Shown: positions 12,711 through 57,601, counted from the first letter of the stretch. The stretch: DNA of 64,000 nt from Peptococcaceae bacterium BRH_c8a (GCA_000961575.1 LADP01000036.1:24283-88282), one strand, 5' to 3'. Made by a program: numbers and translations. The notes: generated by a model from the letters alone, not told the origin.

Positions 12711-12791
12711 CAGTAGTCAGTAGTCAGTAGTCAGAATGGGGAAACGCATTAATGATATTTACGTATTCTGAATTCTGACTCCTGACTACTG
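12711..12791 (+). repeat. Heptamer-array palindromic element, copy A (hslV-hslU spacer)
   Basis: Left arm CAGTAGTCAGTAGTCAGTAGTCAGAAT pairs with right arm ATTCTGAATTCTGACTCCTGACTACTG at 24 of 27 positions. The loop is 27 nt. Confidence 0.9.
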
Positions 12792-23205: not shown

Positions 23206-23240
23206 TTTTGACTACTGACTACTGACTACTGAATTCTAAA
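23206..23240 (+). repeat. Heptamer array, copy D (solo CTGAC-type arm)
   Basis: TTTTGAC TACTGAC TACTGAC TACTGAA TTCTAAA: five phased 7-mers equivalent to the right arm of copies A-C. No matching left arm lies upstream. Confidence 0.85.
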
Positions 23241-29604: not shown

Positions 29605-32583
29605 TTGGTAAAAAAACGAGTCCACGAAGTTGCCAGGGAACTAGACCTGGAAAGCAAGGAATTAATGCGGCAGCTTACTCGCATGGGCGTGGAAACAAAG
29701 TCCCATATGAGTACCCTGGACGATGCTGATATAGTAAAGTTAACAAATCATTACAAGGCTCAAAACGTCAAGCCGGCTACTACTAGTAGGCCGGCTAATA
29801 ATGATCGGCCGGCACCGCAAAAGCCTCGTGATGGTGCTGATGTCGGTCGGCAGGGAGCGCCACGTACCGGTCGTGAAAATCAACGTGGTGGCCAAAACCG
29901 TTATGATCGCGGTCCAGGACTGGTGGATCGGGTTCCATCACGGCCGCCCGACAGAAGATTTACGGAAAAACCTCGTTATAATGCGGGGAAAGGGGTTCCA
30001 CCCAGGAAAAACCCTGCTGATATTCAAGCGAGACCTGATACTCAGCCTCAACCTCAACCGCAATCCCATGAGCAGCCTAAACCGGCATCCCGGGAAAATC
30101 AATCGGTACCGCAAGAAAGGCAACCGGCGATGGTTAGACCTGAAACAAACGCTGGCGAACGGCGTGATAACAGGGATAACCGGCCTAGACCGGCAGAGCA
30201 CACCCAAAATACTAGAACCGGTGCTGCCGATAGCAGGCAACAACGGCCACAATTTGAACAGGGTCATAAAGATGGGCGACCCATGGGCGCACCCGGTTCC
30301 CGTGGTACAGGAACATCGAACCAACAAGGTGGAGCATCCGCTCCTCGTGGCGGGGCACCTGCTCCTCGTGGTGGGGCACCTGCTCCTCGTGGTGGGGCAC
30401 CTGCTCCTCGCGGTGGGGCACCAGGTCCTCGCGGTGGGGCACCAGGTCCTCGTAGTGGGGCACCAGGTCCTCGTAGTGGGGCACCAGGTCCTCGTAGTGG
30501 GGCACCCGGTCCGCGTAGTGGAGCACCCGGTCCTCGCGGTGGAGCACCCGGTCCGCGTAGTGGAGCACCCGGCCCTCGCGGTGGAGATGCAGCCAAGATA
30601 AAACTGGCCGAGAAGGCGAAACCGGACAAAGTTAAGGCTTTAGAAAAAACCAAGGCTCAGGAACGGGTTAAACAGGTTGAAAAGCAAGCATATAAGGGTA
30701 AAGCAGATAAAAAAGGACGTTTTGATAAACGCGACCTGGCGAATGAAAAGTCGCAGGCATTCAAGCGGGGGGGGCATAAGAGAAGACCCCAGCAGGAAAC
30801 GCGACAAGTGCCGGTTAGAGAGAAAAAGCCCATTACTATCGGTGAAACTATCACCGTTAAAAATCTGGCCGAAAGGATGTCCATTAGCGCATCTGAGATA
30901 ATTAAAAAGCTTATGGCATTGGGTGTAATGGCCAGTATCAACCAGGAAATTGATTCTGACACGGCTACCATCCTGGCCAATGAACTGGGTTTTAAAGTGC
31001 ACGTAAAAATGGATATGGAAAAAGAAGCTCAGGTGGTTCAGGAAACTGAGGACGCTCCGGCGGATCTGCGTGCGCGCCCCTGCGTAGTAACCATCATGGG
31101 CCATGTTGACCATGGTAAAACATCACTGCTTGACTCCATCAGAGAGTCAAATGTAACTGCCTCCGAGGCAGGTGGTATTACCCAGCATATTGGCGCCTAT
31201 CAAGTAGAGCATAAAGGTAAAAAAATTACCTTTGTTGATACACCGGGCCACGAGGCATTCACGGCCATGCGGGCTAGGGGGGCCAAGGTAACCGATATTG
31301 CCATCCTGGTGGTGGCAGCGGACGACGGGGTAATGCCACAAACAGTGGAAGCTATAAACCACGTCCGGGCGGCGGGAGTGCCTATCATAATTGCTGTCAA
31401 CAAGATAGATAAACCTGATGCCGAACCTCAGAAAGTAAAACGCGAGCTGACCGAATATAATCTGGTAGCCGAAGAATGGGGCGGAGAAACAATCTTCGTT
31501 GAAGTTTCGGCCAAGGAAAAGACAAATATTAATGAATTACTAGAAATGATTCTCTTGGTATCGGAAATCAACGAATTTAAAGCCAATCCCGACCGGGCGG
31601 CACGGGGTACTGTAATTGAGGCCGAACTGGATAAGGGACGCGGCCCGGTAGCCACTATACTGGTACAAAACGGGACGCTAAAAGTAGGCGACTTTATCAT
31701 CGCCGGAGTCGCGTATGGTAAAGTGCGAGCCATGGTGGATCATGCAGGTCGTCGGGTTAAAAAAGCAGGACCTTCAACACCTGTTGAGGTATTGGGGTTC
31801 TCTGAAGTCCCACCTGCCGGTGAACTGTTCTTTGCTGTAGAAGGCGAAAAACTAGGCAAACAGGTAGTAGACGAACGGCTGGCGAAAAAGCGGGAAGTGG
31901 AAATGAAAACCGCCGCGCCCAAGGTATCCCTGGATGATTTATTCAACCAAATCAAGGAAGGCCAGGTCAAAGAGTTAAACATTATCATCAAGGCCGACGT
32001 GCAGGGTTCGGTTGAGGCTGTCCGGCAGGCTCTAGAAAAAATAAATACTGAAGAGGTACGGGTGAACGTAATTCACGGCGGTGTTGGTGCTGTCACCGAA
32101 TCAGATATTATGCTTGCCTCGGCATCAAATGCCATTGTGATTGGTTTTAACGTGCGGCCCGACGTAAATGCCAGAAAAGCAGTAGAAGCTGAAAAAATCG
32201 ATATCAGACTCTACCGGGTTATTTATGACGCCATTGAGGATATCAAGGCGGCTATGAGCGGCCTGTTGGAACCGGAATACAAAGAAGTAATTCTAGGTCG
32301 CGTAGAAGTGCGTAAGACATTCAAGGTATCCAAAGTGGGTACCATTGCCGGCTGCTATGTCACCGAGGGTAAAATAACCCGAGATGCCGGGGTTCGGGTA
32401 ATCCGAGACGGTATCGTGGTTCATGAGGGAACCCTGGAATCGCTTAAGCGATTTAAGGATGACGTGCGCGAAGTTGTTCATGGCTACGAGTGTGGCATTA
32501 CCGTTGATCGATTTAATGATATCAGGGAAAATGACCAGTTGGAGGCATTTACCACGGAAGCAGTAAAAAGGGAACTGGCTTAA
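29605..32583 (+). CDS. infB: Translation initiation factor IF-2
   Basis: GGAGGTGA-N5-TTG start, N-terminus [18 protein letters not shown], and G domain [26 protein letters not shown]. Confidence 0.95.
30331..30583 (+). repeat. In-frame 21-nt tandem repeat (12 units) inside infB
   Basis: Units GG(A/G)GCACC(T/A/C)G(C/G)TCC(T/G)CG(T/C)(G/A)GT encode 12 consecutive [G/S]GAP[A/G]PR heptapeptides. Confidence 0.95.
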
Positions 32584-39667: not shown

Positions 39668-39762
39668 AGTCACAAGTCACAAGTCACAAGTCGAAGGTCA
39701 AAGGCCGAAAGTCGAAAGGTCATCGTTTAATGTATGACTTTTGATCTTTGACTTTCGACCTT
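39668..39762 (+). repeat. Heptamer-array palindromic element, variant copy E
   Basis: Eight phased 7-mers (AGTCACA x3, AGTCGAA, GGTCAAA, GGCCGAA, AGTCGAA, AGGTCAT), a 10-nt loop, then the inverse array ATGACTT TTGATCT TTGACTT TCGACCT. Confidence 0.9.
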
Positions 39763-43506: not shown

Positions 43507-44289
<783 letters not shown>

Positions 44290-52254: not shown

Positions 52255-53499
52255 ATGAAATTTTTAGTACTTAAGTTTGGGGGTACCTCTCTCAACACAC
52301 CTGAACTTAGGGAAAGAGCGGCTGGAAAAGTAATTGCCGCTATGGATGAGGGGTATCTGCCCGTGGTGGTAGTTTCCGCTATGGGTCGGCAGGGGGACCC
52401 TTATGCAACCGATACATTGCTAAGCCTAATTAAGAAGACTTATCATGATTTGCCGGAACGGGAAAAGGATATATTAATGACCTGCGGTGAGGTTATTTCT
52501 GGTGTCATGTTCACAGCTACTTTGCAGTCCTTGGGGCGACCGGCCGTTTTTTTGACCGGGTCCCAGGCCGGCATTATTACTGATAAAAATTTTGCCGAGG
52601 CTAGGATAATGCAGGTTAACCCCCATAAGGTTACCGCTTACGCACAGGAAGGATACATTGTTGTAGTGGCTGGTTTCCAGGGGGCTACCGAAGACGGTGA
52701 AATTACAACTTTGGGACGTGGCGGCAGTGATACCACTGCAGCTGCTCTGGGTGTGGCCTTAAATGCGGTATATGTGGATATATACACCGATGTTGAGGGC
52801 ATTATGACTGCCGACCCGCGTATTGTGACTGAGGCCAGAGCCTTGGACGCAATTACCTATGATGAAATTTGCCACCTGGCCCATGAAGGCGCAAAAGTAA
52901 TCCACCCCAGGGCAGTTGAAATTGCTATGCAAAAAGGGGTGCCGCTGCGGGTGCGTTCAACATTCAGCGACACGCTTGGTACTCTGGTGACAACCTCTGG
53001 TGAAGTATATAAGGGGACCATTGACATTACTAGAGATCGAATAATTACCGGTATCGCTTATATTTCAGGTATCACCCAGTTTAAGGTGCTTACTGAACCC
53101 GGCACCGGTGGGCTGAAACAGAAAAAAAGAATGTTCAGGGCGCTGGCGCTGGCAGGTGTTAGCATAGATTTTATTAACATTGTGCAGGAAACGGTTTTAT
53201 TTACCGTTAATGATGAACTAACCGCTAAGGCGACCCGGGTACTGGAAAACGCCGGGTATCACGCCGAGGTAATCTCGGGTTGCGCCAAGGTATCTGCAGT
53301 GGGGGCAGGAATGTCCGGCGTACCCGGAGTTATTGCAGATATTGTTGAGGCGTTGGCCGGGGAGGATGTACAGATTTTACAATGTAACGACTCCCATACC
53401 ACGGTGTGGGTGCTGGTCAGCCGTGAACAGATGGAGATGGCTGTCCGGGCTTTGCACACTAAGTTCATGTTAAAAGGAGAGGGGACACACCTCAGCTAA
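52255..53499 (+). CDS. dapG: Aspartokinase (DapG/LysC type)
   Basis: VLKFGGTSL, LGRGGSDTTA, and C-terminal ACT domains. The last roughly 6 codons and the stop lie inside repeat family 2. Confidence 0.9.
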   Translation: MKFLVLKFGGTSLNTPELRERAAGKVIAAMDEGYLPVVVVSAMGRQGDPYATDTLLSLIKKTYHDLPEREKDILMTCGEVISGVMFTATLQSLGRPAVFLTGSQAGIITDKNFAEARIMQVNPHKVTAYAQEGYIVVVAGFQGATEDGEITTLGRGGSDTTAAALGVALNAVYVDIYTDVEGIMTADPRIVTEARALDAITYDEICHLAHEGAKVIHPRAVEIAMQKGVPLRVRSTFSDTLGTLVTTSGEVYKGTIDITRDRIITGIAYISGITQFKVLTEPGTGGLKQKKRMFRALALAGVSIDFINIVQETVLFTVNDELTAKATRVLENAGYHAEVISGCAKVSAVGAGMSGVPGVIADIVEALAGEDVQILQCNDSHTTVWVLVSREQMEMAVRALHTKFMLKGEGTHLS

Positions 53500-53607
53500 T
53501 GGGTAATAAGGAATGGGGACATACCTCAGCTTAATGGTTAAAGTCTTGGGGTCGAGGAATGTCCCCGATTGGATTGGTCGAGGAATGTCCCTGACTGGAA
53601 TGTCCCC
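53481..53607 (+). repeat. GGGGACA...TGTCCCC hairpin repeat, nested copies (family 2)
   Basis: Two left halves GGGGACA(C/T)ACCTCAGCT at 53481 and 53515. Two and a half right halves (G)GTCGAGGAATGTCCC(C) and GGAATGTCCCC follow at 53548, 53577 and 53597. Confidence 0.9.
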
Positions 53608-53643
53608 AACGTAAGGATTTAAGCCGAAAGGAAGGTGATAGTT

Positions 53644-54528
53644 TTGGTTACGGATTTTGGGCGAGTGCTAACGGCTATGGTTACTCCTTTCAACAAGGAT
53701 CAAACTATAGACTTTGAGCAGGTTAAAAAACTGGCCCGGCACCTAGTGCAATCAGGTTCGGACGGGTTAGTGCTGGCTGGCACTACCGGTGAATCGCCAA
53801 CACTAAGTAAGGATGAAAAAGTTGAATTATTCAGGGTGGTTGTGGAAGAAGTAGGCGGGGACGCCATTGTTATTGCCGGTACCGGGGGCAACAACACTGC
53901 CGCCAGTGTGGAACTAACCCGGGCGGCAGAGAAGGTAGGCGTCGACGGTGTTCTGCAGGTTAGCCCTTACTACAATAAACCTACTCAGGAAGGCTTGTAC
54001 CAGCATTTTAAGGCCATTGCCGCCAGCACCAACCTGCCTGTTATGCTATATAACATACCAGGGCGGACGGCGGTGAATATTCTACCCCAAACGGTAATCC
54101 GCTTGGCCGAAATAGAAAACATTACTTCGATTAAGGAAGCATCGGGAAGCCTCGATCAGGTCAGCGAACTCAGGCGGTCTCTACCTGACCATTTCGCCAT
54201 CTACAGTGGGGATGACTCCATGACTTTACCGATTATGTCGCTGGGCGGCAAGGGCGTAGTCAGTGTAGCGGCCCATATTGTAGGCCCTAAAATTCAGGAG
54301 ATGGTTAACGCTTTTACGTCCGGTAACGTTACCATGGCAACCAAGATACACAGTAGTCTTTATCCCGTATTTAAGATTCTTTTTATAACCACTAACCCGG
54401 TGCCGGTAAAGGCTGCCATGAACATGCTGGGCTGGAAGGTGGGTGCACCCAGGTTGCCGCTGGTGGATGTCAATGAAGCTGAGAGAGAAGCCCTAAGAAG
54501 AGTCCTTGCCGATTTCCAGCTTCTTTAA
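53644..54528 (+). CDS. dapA: 4-hydroxy-tetrahydrodipicolinate synthase
   Basis: TAMVTPF, GTTGES.TLS, and the YNIPGRT motif. The TTG at 53644 is 8 nt after AAGGAAGG (track ORF starts at 53635). Confidence 0.9.
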
Positions 54529-54564
54529 CACTGGGGGTTGGTTAATTTGGCCATGATTAACGAA

Positions 54565-54593
54565 GGGAGCCAGACGGCTCCTTTTCGTTTTTT
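54565..54593 (+). terminator. Rho-independent terminator after dapA
   Basis: GGAGCC agac GGCTCC followed by TTTTCGTTTTTT. Confidence 0.9.
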
Positions 54594-54726
54594 AAATTCA
54601 GTTTACAGTGTTAGTAACTTGCCTTTTTTGGACAAGATTAAATTAGAACCTGACTATGTTTATAGTTATATTTAGACTGATTGCTAAAATTTTGCATACC
54701 ATGTGGTTGATTTAGGTGAGCCTTTC

Positions 54727-54755
54727 TTGTCCAACTCCTTTGGATACAGTATAAT
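54727..54755 (+). promoter_or_regulatory. Sigma-A-type promoter for rnj
   Basis: TTGTCC, 17-nt spacer, TATAAT, with a leader of roughly 120 nt before the GGGAGGTG SD. Confidence 0.5.
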
Positions 54756-54875
54756 GGATTAGCGAGTACTGAGCGGCCTGATAAAACAGAATATTTTCCC
54801 GCCTTCTCCTGATTTCTCACCAAACTATACGCACTATTTTTAAACTGCAATTATCTACAATTCGGGAGGTGTAAT

Positions 54876-56540
54876 ATGGCGCGAGAACCTAAGATTTCCT
54901 TGATCCCCCTTGGGGGACTGGGAGAGATCGGCAAAAACATGATGGTGGTGAGATACGGGGAAAATATTCTGGTTATCGATTCGGGGTTGATGTTCCCCGA
55001 AGAGGATCTACTGGGCATTGACATTGTAATTCCGGACATAACGTACCTGCTGGAGAATAAAAACATTGTACGGGGCATTGTGCTAACACATGGCCATGAA
55101 GATCATATCGGTGCCTTGCCTTATGTGTTAAAGCAGTTGGACGTCCCGGTATACGGAACCGGCTTAACCCTGGGTATATTACGGGAAAAACTCAGGGAGC
55201 GTCACCTGGCGGACAGTACCAAGCTGCATTGCGTAAAGCCCCGGGATGTAATCCAGGTCGGGCCGTTTAAAGTTGAGTTTATCCGAGTTTCACACAGTAT
55301 CCCTGACGCAGTAGCCCTGGCGATAGAAACGCCGGTAGGTATAATTGTACATACCGGTGATTTTAAGATTGACCAGACACCTGTGGACGGAGAAGTTACC
55401 GATTTTTACAGGCTGGCACAGTTGGGTGATCGGGGCGTGCTGGCCATGTTAAGCGATAGCACAAATGTGGAGAGACCCGGCTATACCATGTCCGAGCGCG
55501 TCGTGGGGCAAACTTTTGACGACACTTTCCGAAAGGCCGACGAACGGATCATCGTGGCCACTTTTGCTTCCAACGTGCACCGCCTGCAGCAGGCTATTAC
55601 CACCGCCCATAGATACAACAGGAAAGTGGCTGTGGTTGGACGCAGCATGGTTAACGTAGTCAATATTGCCCGTGAACTCGGTTACCTGAAGGTGCCCGAC
55701 GGGGTGCTTGTAGAATTGGAAGAAGCGGGCAGACTCCCTCGGAGTCAGGTGGTATACTTGACAACGGGCAGCCAAGGCGAGCCGATGAGCGCTCTGACCA
55801 GGATGGCCAGCAGGGATCATCGGCAAGTGGAAATTATGCCTGGAGATACGATTATAATTTCGGCTACTCCTATTCCCGGCAACGAAAAGCTGGTGGCTCG
55901 GATCATAGACCAGCTTTTTAAGCTGGGCGCCAACGTTATTTATGAGGCAGTGTCTGGTATACATGTAAGCGGTCACCCCAGCCAGGAAGAATTGAAGCTG
56001 ATGTTCAACCTGGTAAAACCCAAGTTTTTTCTGCCGGTACACGGCGAGTACCGCATGCTAATCAGGCACGCCGAGCTGGCCAAAGATATGGGTATCCCGG
56101 AATCCAACATTTTTGTATCAGAAAATGGTCAGGTGTTGGAATTAACCAAACGTAGCGGGCACTATGCCGGTCGGGTGACCGCCGGTCGGGTGCTGGTTGA
56201 CGGATTGGGAGTAGGTGACGTGGGCAATATTGTGCTGCGTGACCGCCGCCAACTGTCCCAGGACGGGATCTTAATCGTGGTGGTGACCATGAGCCGAGAA
56301 AACGGTCAGATTGTTTCCGGGCCGGACATTGTATCCCGGGGTTTTGTTTATGTTCGTGAATCCGAGGAACTAATGGAACAAGCCAGGGAAAAGGTGAACG
56401 CTGCCCTGACAAAGTGTTCAACTAAAAAAATGTCAGAATGGGCGTCCATTAAATCCCAGGTCAAAGATGATTTAAGCAGATTTCTATACGAGAAAACCAG
56501 GAGAAGGCCCATGATTCTACCCATTATAATGGAAGTATAG
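54876..56540 (+). CDS. rnj: Ribonuclease J
   Basis: Metallo-beta-lactamase motif THGHEDHIG, a beta-CASP domain, and a C-terminal domain. Confidence 0.95.
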
Positions 56541-56542
56541 CT

Positions 56543-56670
56543 GAAAGGGGACACACCTCAGCTTTGGGGTCAAAAAAAGACTTTGGGGTCGAGGAATGTC
56601 CCCCAACTTATGAAAGGGGACACACCTCAGCTTTGGGGTTAAAAAGACTTTGGGGTCGAGGAATGTTTCC
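56543..56670 (+). repeat. GGGGACA...TGTCCCC hairpin repeat, two tandem units (family 2)
   Basis: GAAAGGGGACACACCTCAGCTTTGGGGT(C/T)AAAAA(AA)GACTTTGGGGTCGAGGAATGT(CCCC/TTCC) occurs twice with a 69-nt period, starting 3 nt after the rnj stop. Confidence 0.95.
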
Positions 56671-56681
56671 GATTGAACGAA

Positions 56682-56717
56682 ATACACAGGTGCACCAGCG
56701 CCTGTGTATTTTTTTTG
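56682..56717 (+). terminator. Rho-independent terminator after rnj and repeats
   Basis: ATACACAGG ... CCTGTGTAT stem followed by a run of 8 T. Confidence 0.9.
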
Positions 56718-56779
56718 CCCTAGTAATACATACTAAACTGACAATTGCTAAATTATGTTCATGGAACGGGGAGGTTAAT

Positions 56780-57601
56780 ATGTCTTACTACCAATCTTTT
56801 GACGAAGTACCCGGTGTTTTTCCCTACCAACCACCTTCACGCCCAGATCCGGAAACCAGCCCTGAGCGTACCGACAATCCCAACCAGGACCCCCGGACGG
56901 ATCGGGCCAGAGTTACGGGCAAGTCCAAAAATATCATTGAAGCCGTTAAAGAAATGGGCACCACTCAGGTACCTGAGATTAAAAGCAATATTCATTGCCT
57001 GACCATTGTGGGTCAAATTGAAGGACACCTGGTGTTACCGCCACAAAACAAAACCACCAAGTACGAACACCTGATTCCCCAGTTGGTGGCGTTGGAGCAA
57101 AGCCATGAAATTGAGGGCGTGCTCATCGTATTAAACACGGTGGGTGGCGATGTGGAAGCGGGTCTTGCCATCGCTGAAATTATCTCCAGTCTCTCCAAAC
57201 CCACCGTATCTTTAGTGCTGGGCGGAGGACATAGTATTGGTGTTCCCATTGCTGTATCAACAGACTATTCGTATATCGCTGAAACAGCTAGCATGACCAT
57301 CCATCCTATCCGCTTGACCGGACTGGTTATCGGTGTGCCCCAAACCTATGAGTATTTAGATAAAATGCAAGACCGGGTAGTCCGGTTTATCACATCTCAT
57401 TCCAAAATTGGCGAAGAAAGATTCCGTGATTTAATGTTTCGTACCGGTGAACTGGCCCGGGATATCGGTACCGTACTCATCGGCCAGGATGCTGTGGATT
57501 GTGATTTGGTCGATGAGGTGGGAGGTATGAGTCAGGCTATCAATAAGCTAAAGCAGCTTATTGATGAACAGAAAGCCGGAGCCGGGGGGCTAAAGCATTG
57601 A
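56780..57601 (+). CDS. tepA: ClpP-fold protein TepA-like (translocation-enhancing protein)
   Basis: IVGQIEGH...[16 protein letters not shown]...GGGHSIG resembles Bacillus TepA/YmfB, and GGGGAGG SD lies before the ATG at 56780. The track ORF start at 56564 reads through the repeats and the terminator. Confidence 0.8.

Follow-up and report, generated by a model that had tools for sequence, protein, structure and literature searches.

The DNA behind the gene for RNase J (rnj) in Peptococcaceae bacterium BRH_c8a carries two near-identical hairpin units, which raises the question of what these units are and whether they have anything to do with the ribonuclease encoded beside them. The locus was analysed as part of a window of 64,000 nt, to which all coordinates refer unless a contig is named. 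The assembly of this organism (4.17 Mb) is designated G000 and its closest relative G001. All features of the two loci described first lie on the plus strand.

The rnj ORF (54876-56540; NCBIfam TIGR00649, 684 bits) ends with a TAG codon at 56538-56540. The position of this stop codon is identical in the orthologues from 12 genomes, and it stands at the spot where the conserved 5′ flank of the repeat family has TAA or TAG. A 69-nt repeated unit starts at 56542 and again at 56611 with 97% identity (family D1, spacing 69). A preliminary description of the locus had reported two such units with this period, 3 nt after the stop codon; units and period were confirmed, whereas the distance fits only the start of the repeated unit, the left (L) arm of the hairpin beginning 6 nt after the stop. 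The intervening 5′ flank, CTGAAA (56541-56546), is a variant of the consensus (C)GGAAA. Unit 1 (56547-56603) consists of the L arm GGGGACACACCTC (56547-56559), a 31-nt loop and the right (R) arm GAGGAATGTCCCC (56591-56603), and is matched by nhmmer with an E value of 6e-16. The direct repeat described in the loop is present as two copies of CTTTGGGGTC, and the unit is indeed G+C-rich (0.54, compared with 0.48 for the genome). The spacer CAACTTATGAAA (56604-56615), in which the 3′ flank AAYKTATG is fused to the next 5′ flank, leads to unit 2 (56616-56670). The L arm of unit 2 (56616-56628) is intact, while its R arm (56658-56670) has decayed to GAGGAATGTTTCC (GTTTCC) by two C-to-T changes; the orthologous copy in G001 is intact. 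A 3′ flank of the alternative GATTRR type, GATTGAACG, follows at 56671-56679.

The intrinsic terminator of rnj (56680-56718, inverted repeat I8) lies outside the repeat family and, as had been stated, downstream of both units. A simple terminator scan missed it because its stem contains one mismatch, but it is confirmed by folding and conservation: the hairpin at 56680-56711 with its T run reaches -13.9 kcal/mol (z -6.3) and is kept in 12 genomes. The tepA gene (ClpP family) has a conserved ATG at 56780, so that the start of the ORF 56564..57601, 72 codons upstream, is an artefact, again as proposed. Within the window, the full pattern gave three matches against 0.00 expected and none in shuffles of the window, and the L arm with at most one mismatch gave four matches against 0.06 expected. 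The observation of two units after rnj is correct and far beyond chance.

Folding as RNA gives the predicted hairpins, GGGGACA, a CA/AA internal loop and CCTC pairing with GAGG and TGTCCCC, with -30.7 kcal/mol (z -4.4) for unit 1 and -23.6 kcal/mol (z -3.1) for unit 2. The fold of unit 2 requires G.U pairs, and as single-stranded DNA this unit does not fold (z 0.0). For the family as a whole, the core may be described as an 11-bp interrupted stem, made up of GGGGACA, an internal loop of CA opposite AA, CCTS/SAGG and TGTCCCC. It encloses a loop of 3-5 nt in the short form or about 25 nt in the long form, the latter being lineage-specific. Three forms occur in G000: a short hairpin of 29-31 nt, a long form A with the loop AGCTTATGGGTCAAGCTTTGGGGTC, and a long form B, whose inner stem is CCTG/CAGG and whose loop differs. 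Tandem arrays in G000 have a period of 62-63 nt, and the period at rnj is 69 nt because the loops are longer; the inter-unit junction of 11-12 nt seen at rnj is also found in the arrays with a period of 62-63 nt elsewhere. The sequences next to the hairpin are conserved and asymmetric, with TA(A/GN)GGWAA as the 5′ consensus and AAYKTATGR or GATTRR as the 3′ consensus. Sequence logos (WWRAGGWAA and AAYKNATGR, respectively) confirm that the two flanks are unlike each other. These conserved flanks come with the element.

Two simple identities of the units were rejected. They are not intrinsic terminators, since no U run follows them (the next sequence is AACTTATG or GATTGAAC) and an array lies within the conserved gene pair dapG-dapA. 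Nor is the tandem unit a mini-ORF (ATG...TGA), given the periods of 62, 63 and 69 nt and loop lengths that vary by 1-2 nt. A scan of 53300-57000 against Rfam 15 at E <= 10 returned only a chance microRNA match (17.7 bits, gathering score 70).

The second locus of the same family noted in the preliminary description is the spacer between dapG, encoding aspartate kinase, and dapA, which holds family members at 53481-53609. An outer, unpaired L arm (53481-53493) is translated as the final codons of the aspartate kinase ORF (...LKGEGTHLS*). It is followed by a complete unit at 53515-53566 (L arm GGGGACATACCTC, R arm GAGGAATGTCCCC; nhmmer E 4e-16) and by two extra R arms, GAGGAATGTCCCT at 53580-53592 and GGAATGTCCCCAA at 53597-53609 (family D2, inverted repeat I10). 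At this site, the R-arm half-site has been amplified in tandem. The aspartate kinase ORF of G000 extends 12 codons into the L arm, while the protein ends 5-6 residues earlier in relatives. A deletion of about 10 nt relative to G001 (within 53460-53499) removed the native dapG stop codon, and the gene now stops at a TAA within the repeat, which gives the C-terminus LKGEGTHLS. The spacer is filled in G000 and G001 and empty in three other relatives (G002, G010 and G011); in a further one, G003, only an R-arm remnant is found, within the C-terminus of dapG.

The possibility that the family is restricted to these two loci, for example by a local duplication, did not hold. Allowing one mismatch, G000 contains 100 L and 105 R arms in 89 clusters. 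After strand resolution these correspond to 88 units in 72 clusters, most of them intergenic, and an HMM of the long form gave 105 nhmmer matches. Exact copies of both arms, GGGGACACACCTS...SAGGAATGTCCCC, were present in 18 of the 41 relatives (up to 65 copies) and in 20 of 401 genomes from an even phylum-wide sample (up to 77 copies), and a reversed control pattern had no match in the latter. There are hundreds of copies in other genera. Named records with the family include ones from Desulfotomaculum, Desulfocucumis, Desulfoscipio, Desulfotruncus, Pelotomaculum and Desulfosporosinus, and further ones from Syntrophomonas, Sedimentibacter, Tissierella, Dethiobacter and Candidatus Formimonas. 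Carriage of the family by phages was dismissed, as the pattern was present in only four of 2.9 million viral contigs. Arrays of five to six identical units with a period of 60-62 nt, satellite-like in appearance, were seen in two distant genomes (G291:C1:1106571-1106919 and G252:C4:23754-24155). Such arrays suggest amplification of whole units rather than repeated independent insertion. Literature searches by arm sequence, or by repeat type (MITE, REP) combined with Desulfotomaculum, found no description of the family, which appears to be undescribed in the searchable literature. The units after rnj are ordinary members of a large and widespread REP-like repeat family.

Across genomes, the 26 arm bases including the CA/AA internal mismatch are invariant, and the loops are lineage-specific. 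Exact arms in so many bacterial families, next to variable loops, are what speaks for selection on the arms as sites bound by a conserved protein of the host, for instance a nucleoid or topology factor, or as an operator array or uptake signal; the family would then not be mobile. We consider this hardly credible, as the distribution in the phylum sample is patchy, four other genomes of the same genus contain anything from 0 to 65 exact copies, an orthologous site that is filled in one relative may be empty in another, and copies lie within coding sequences and are decaying.

In sequence, the family is distinct from the heptamer repeats, as had been noted. Heptamer tandem repeats (CAGTAGT, TGACTAC, AGTCACA, AGTCAGG) occur in the window at 12711-12734, 23209-23232, 39668-39692 and 44234-44266, and also at C21:118340-118500. 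At C21:118400, inverted heptamer arrays, GAATTCAGGAGTCAGTAGTCAG ... CTGACTACTGACTAC, lie immediately on both sides of a GGGGACA unit; hence both families can nest. Other repeats were observed as well. At 30328-30584 of the window there are 12.2 copies of a 21-nt tandem repeat, GGTGGGGCACCCGGTCCTCGT (90% match); as its period is divisible by three, it may encode a Gly/Pro-rich repeat protein. Two more repeats bear no relation to the hairpin family: one of about 115 nt (C21:131932-132052, L141 16433-16553), of which G001 has over 40 copies that are about 90% identical, and one of 190-330 nt at L141 11181-11508.

The inner stem allowed pairing to be analysed without selection bias, since the units for this set were picked by the outer stem and the internal loop only. 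Five inner-stem types were found, CCTC/GAGG (33 units), CCTG/CAGG (9), CCTT/AAGG (5), CCCC/GGGG (2) and CCCG/CGGG (1). Position L13 pairs with R1 in 56 of 70 units, compared with 35.1 in shuffles, and L12 with R2 in 63 of 70, compared with 55.5; none of 5000 shuffles reached either value, although these shuffles overstate independence because the copies of a mobile family share kinship. The inner stem covaries: there are structure-preserving substitutions between copies, and four Watson-Crick types at one position show that its pairing matters. Among stem mismatches on the unit strand, G.U (11) and A.C (9) are similarly frequent. This strand symmetry gives no hint that selection acts on one of the RNA strands.

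Comparison of orthologous sites revealed how the units came to lie after rnj. In 10 related genomes, the rnj stop codon is followed within 3-30 nt by the terminator, AAAAATACACAGG...CCTGTGTATTTTTTT, without any unit; among the 12 genomes compared, units between stop codon and terminator exist only in G000 and G001, and were therefore inserted in this lineage. G001 has a remnant, ATGTCCCC, and one unit at this place, and G000 has two units. By this comparison, the terminator predates the insertion. Copies entered between the stop codon and the pre-existing terminator in the common ancestor of G000 and G001; copy number then diverged between the two, and unit 2 began to decay. The placement after rnj is a lineage-specific and incidental insertion.

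Insertions are also evident within genes. Eight ORFs of G000 contain in-frame copies, translated as ...ERGHTS..GGMSP.... In the gene for an RsmB-like methyltransferase, a copy takes the place of a linker of 3-4 codons kept by four relatives. In a PurL-like gene, a 42-nt copy separates two Ile codons that are adjacent in four relatives; at this site G001 has two tandem units and G000 has one. No clear or consistent target duplication was found at the rnj, RsmB-like and PurL-like junctions. The intergenic spacers of G003 are unfit for defining exact insertion boundaries, being too diverged and full of other repeats.

Taken together, we assign a probability of about 0.7 to a reading in which the units are mobile DNA, each a copy of a non-autonomous palindromic repeat of the REP-like kind. 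The terminal inverted repeats (GGGGACA...TGTCCCC), the shortness and abundance of the copies, and their nested or tandem arrangement would also suit a classical MITE, an internally deleted derivative of a DDE-type insertion sequence. This origin is very improbable. A full-length element bounded by the arms was found neither in G000 nor at about 250 other loci, the three resolved junctions just described do not share a target-site duplication, the conserved flanks differ from each other, and the short units of about 30 nt are far below the typical size of MITEs.

A further property of the family is its association with stop codons. Of 34 clusters that lie behind a gene of the same strand, 12 begin 4-7 nt past its stop codon, where 3.05 are expected from uniform placement within the spacer (P < 5e-6). 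A stricter test required that the stop codon belongs to an ORF of at least 100 codons. It placed 12 of 57 arrays in G000 and 17 of 115 in other taxa at 5-7 nt after a stop, compared with none and three, respectively, in mirror controls. Thus, 15-21% of the arrays begin 5-7 nt past a stop codon, which is a new point. The reason is that the conserved 5′ flank contains TAA or TAG: a TAR triplet (TAA/TAG) is found at -8 or -9 in 34 of 57 arrays (about 60%). At rnj, and in G001 also at dapG, the triplet falls on the place of the native stop codon. There are two possible readings. The element may insert beside TAA or TAG triplets, or its left end may supply the stop codon, insertions of this kind being those that are tolerated. 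In either case, a left end carrying or targeting TAA/TAG would place many copies exactly at gene ends.

The orientation of the clusters is biased too. Between co-directional genes, 38 clusters are in sense and 15 (about 28%) in antisense orientation (p 0.002). Targeting by replication strand was rejected as the cause: orientation tracks genes and not GC skew, with six of seven discordant clusters following the gene and, in convergent or divergent spacers, 10 leading against nine lagging. The sense bias could reflect selection on transcripts or a strand-specific target. By spacer type, the 72 clusters of G000 (53 co-directional, 12 divergent, 7 convergent) match the expectation from spacer length (44.5, 16.6 and 10.9; p 0.12). 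They are neither depleted from divergent nor enriched in convergent spacers.

These data bear on a function at the RNA level. Transcription of rnj would include the units in the 3′ UTR, where they would form two stable hairpins ahead of that of the terminator. The preliminary description had suggested that they protect RNA 3′ ends against the adjacent gene product, RNase J. This enzyme is a 5′-to-3′ exonuclease and an endonuclease, so protection by a 3′ hairpin is not expected. Given this polarity and the lack of units after rnj in most relatives, a link to the neighbouring gene is unlikely. Nor is the proposed role supported by the antisense clusters, the distribution over spacer types, the eight in-frame copies or the balance of G.U and A.C mismatches.

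In a more general form, the units would be functional RNA elements, that is, intercistronic or 3′-UTR hairpins which stabilize upstream mRNA or direct its processing, and the copy at rnj would tune RNase J expression. Some REPs of E. coli have been shown to act in one of these ways. The sense bias, which follows the gene and not the replication strand, and the fixed position at 5-7 nt past stop codons agree with such a role. So does the more stable fold of the sense RNA (-30.7 against -26.0 kcal/mol for antisense, aided by G.U pairs of the loop repeats), and the RNA fold of unit 2 survives through G.U pairs while its DNA hairpin is lost. We nevertheless regard this explanation as rather unlikely, because 10 of 12 genomes have no units after rnj, 28% of the clusters between co-directional genes are antisense, the frequencies of spacer types are those expected from spacer length, and copies are located in frame within genes. 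In addition, G.U pairs are not in excess of A.C among stem mismatches, the loop sequence differs between lineages, and there is no Rfam match. For the rnj transcript itself, the effect of the units is probably neutral or a mild change in mRNA stability.

As to its mobilization, the family would spread as DNA by way of a hairpin on single-stranded DNA. Recognition of this hairpin in trans would fall to a tyrosine HUH transposase of the RAYT/TIRYT class (TnpA_REP subclass 2.1) whose gene lies elsewhere in the genome. RAYT-like TIRYT genes are flanked by terminal inverted repeats (TIRs) that share the sequence GGGGWSAS ('TIRtrons'; Di Nocera et al., 2013; PMC3733652). They correspond to TnpA_REP subclass 2.1, whose members have DnaA_C-like HTH domains, with no REP-like sequences detected in their vicinity (Quentin et al., 2018; PMC6006769). 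The published TIR families were not reported from Bacillota; the terms 'Firmicutes' and 'Clostridi' are absent from the main text of the former paper (PMC3733652). The L arm of the GGGGACA family begins with GGGGACAC, which fits the motif GGGG[AT][CG]A[CG] given for these ends (PMC3733652, PMC6006769), and the reverse complement of the R arm, GGGGACAT, matches it at seven of eight positions.

G000 contains two TIRYT-like Y1 genes. The one at C21:81869-82744 (292 aa) encodes a Y1_Tnp and a Bac_DnaA_C domain (DnaA_C-like HTH) and has inverted repeats of 35 nt; that at C25:80943-81953 (337 aa) encodes Y1_Tnp and has inverted repeats of 38 nt. One of the two pairs of repeats starts with GGGGTCAGGCC, the commonest end among the orthologues in relatives. 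The C21 gene has an extra perfect palindrome of 26 bp at one end. The repeat end of the C25 type, AACACCTGGCACCA, was also seen in an intergenic spacer of G003 and may constitute a separate repeat family.

Two sister hairpin families with a GGGGACAGG core are present in G000. The smaller one comprises eight hairpins, AAAAAGGGGACAGGCTACTTTTT...AAAAAGTAGCCTGTCCCCTTTTT (C15:53295, C17:4677, C21:109392, C25:19352/163992/174836, C45:252648), and its arms are the 22-bp repeats flanking a TIRYT (Y1) gene of 225 aa in G001 (G001:C83:7962-8636), a gene that is missing from G000. This identity of arms shows directly that TIRYT ends give rise to dispersed hairpins in the genus. Identity of a dispersed repeat with repeats flanking a TIRYT gene was found only for this sister family (GGGGACAGGCTAC) and not for GGGGACACACCTC. 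The smaller sister hairpins resemble bidirectional terminators. The larger sister family has about 38 copies of a near-perfect palindrome of about 70 nt, CCAGACAAGGGGACAGGGACYTGTCTGG...CCAGACARGTCCCTGTCCCCTTGTCTGG, with a GGGGACA core; 27 of them are located on the 96-kb contig C36 (2784-96307) and the others are scattered. The 225-aa TIRYT (inverted repeat AAAAAGGGGACAGGCTAC) was discarded as the mobilizer of the GGGGACA family, since it is missing from G000 and from most hairpin-rich genomes.

TIRYT-like genes and GGGGACA hairpins co-occur. In the phylum sample, a TIRYT-like gene is present in 17 of the 20 genomes with hairpins and in 99 of the 381 without (odds ratio 16, p 1.4e-7), and among the relatives the figures are 18 of 18 and 16 of 23 (p 0.012); shared ancestry is ignored in both comparisons. 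There are exceptions to this pattern: G283 has nine copies and no TIRYT-like match at E <= 1e-20, and G252 has 77 copies and a single Y1 gene without such repeats nearby. At about 80 Y1 loci from about 45 genomes (G000, 40 relatives and five high-copy genomes), none of the genes is bounded by GGGGACACACCTC / GAGGAATGTCCCC. No transposase bounded by the family arms was detected in the 8-kb neighbourhoods of 118 copies in other taxa, and no element between arm pairs 300-3000 nt apart. That orientation follows transcription runs counter to the lagging-strand targeting predicted for enzymes of the IS200/IS605 type, and leaves room for selection or function at the RNA level.

Mobilization by a TIRYT in trans may be put at somewhat below even odds. 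More tentative still is the complete picture, in which the GGGGACA hairpins would be the missing dispersed partners of the TIRYT enzymes (TnpA_REP subclass 2.1), which would act in trans and not be flanked by the repeats; TAA/TAG-directed insertion would make the element land preferentially on stop codons, where it could replace or supply the stop of the upstream gene throughout a phylum of anaerobes.

The TIR families of TIRYT genes are also similar in that they are moderately abundant and occur as single units, dimers and clusters. The TIRYT-like genes of G000 have an HTH of the DnaA_C type and co-occur with the hairpins phylum-wide, and sister hairpin arms are the repeats flanking a TIRYT gene in G001. 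The GGGGACA family differs from them in that no TIRYT gene is flanked by its own arms, in the fixed internal mismatch of the arms (CA opposite AA), and in the conserved asymmetric flanks with a stop codon.

With the REP, BIME and REPIN-RAYT systems of Proteobacteria the family shares short, imperfect and mostly extragenic palindromes in tens to hundreds of copies, which are single, tandem or clustered, frequently lie in transcripts at the ends of genes and have a conserved unpaired tag beside the hairpin. Mobilization in trans by a single-copy Y1 HUH enzyme has been proposed for these systems as well. On the other hand, the flank logos contain no GTAG or CGTC tag, and no RAYT flanked by GGGGACA repeats was found (two Y1 genes of G000 and about 80 loci). 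While REPINs are inverted doublets of REPs, GGGGACA arrays are head-to-tail with a period of 62-69 nt, and clusters are almost all on one strand. REPs are usually specific for a species or genus, whereas the GGGGACA arms are common to many bacterial families and, unlike REP, BIME and REPIN sequences, the copies are not depleted from divergent spacers.

Rickettsia palindromic elements are comparable with respect to in-frame copies in conserved protein genes that are translated as extra loops (eight ORFs here), but are unrelated in sequence, size and host phylum, and GGGGACA copies are mostly intergenic. The small MITEs BOX, RUP, Correia/NEMIS and ERIC are likewise non-coding, hairpin-forming, dispersed and co-transcribed with their neighbours. 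They are 100-150 nt long or modular and, where known, are derived from or dependent on DDE transposases and have target duplications (TA for Correia), features not found for the GGGGACA family.

What is new and most useful here is the association with stop codons, the statistics of orientation, the comparison of filled with empty sites, and the quantified link to TIRYT genes. For annotation, the stop-codon link is of importance, as the element gives rise to spurious N-terminal extensions (tepA) and changed C-termini (aspartate kinase) and inserts loops in frame into enzymes. To our knowledge, REP-like elements and their tyrosine transposases have been studied almost only in Proteobacteria. The GGGGACA hairpins are a well-delimited family in anaerobic spore-forming Bacillota with arms that match the TIRYT end motif, and thus a concrete substrate for testing this widespread and uncharacterized class of enzymes.
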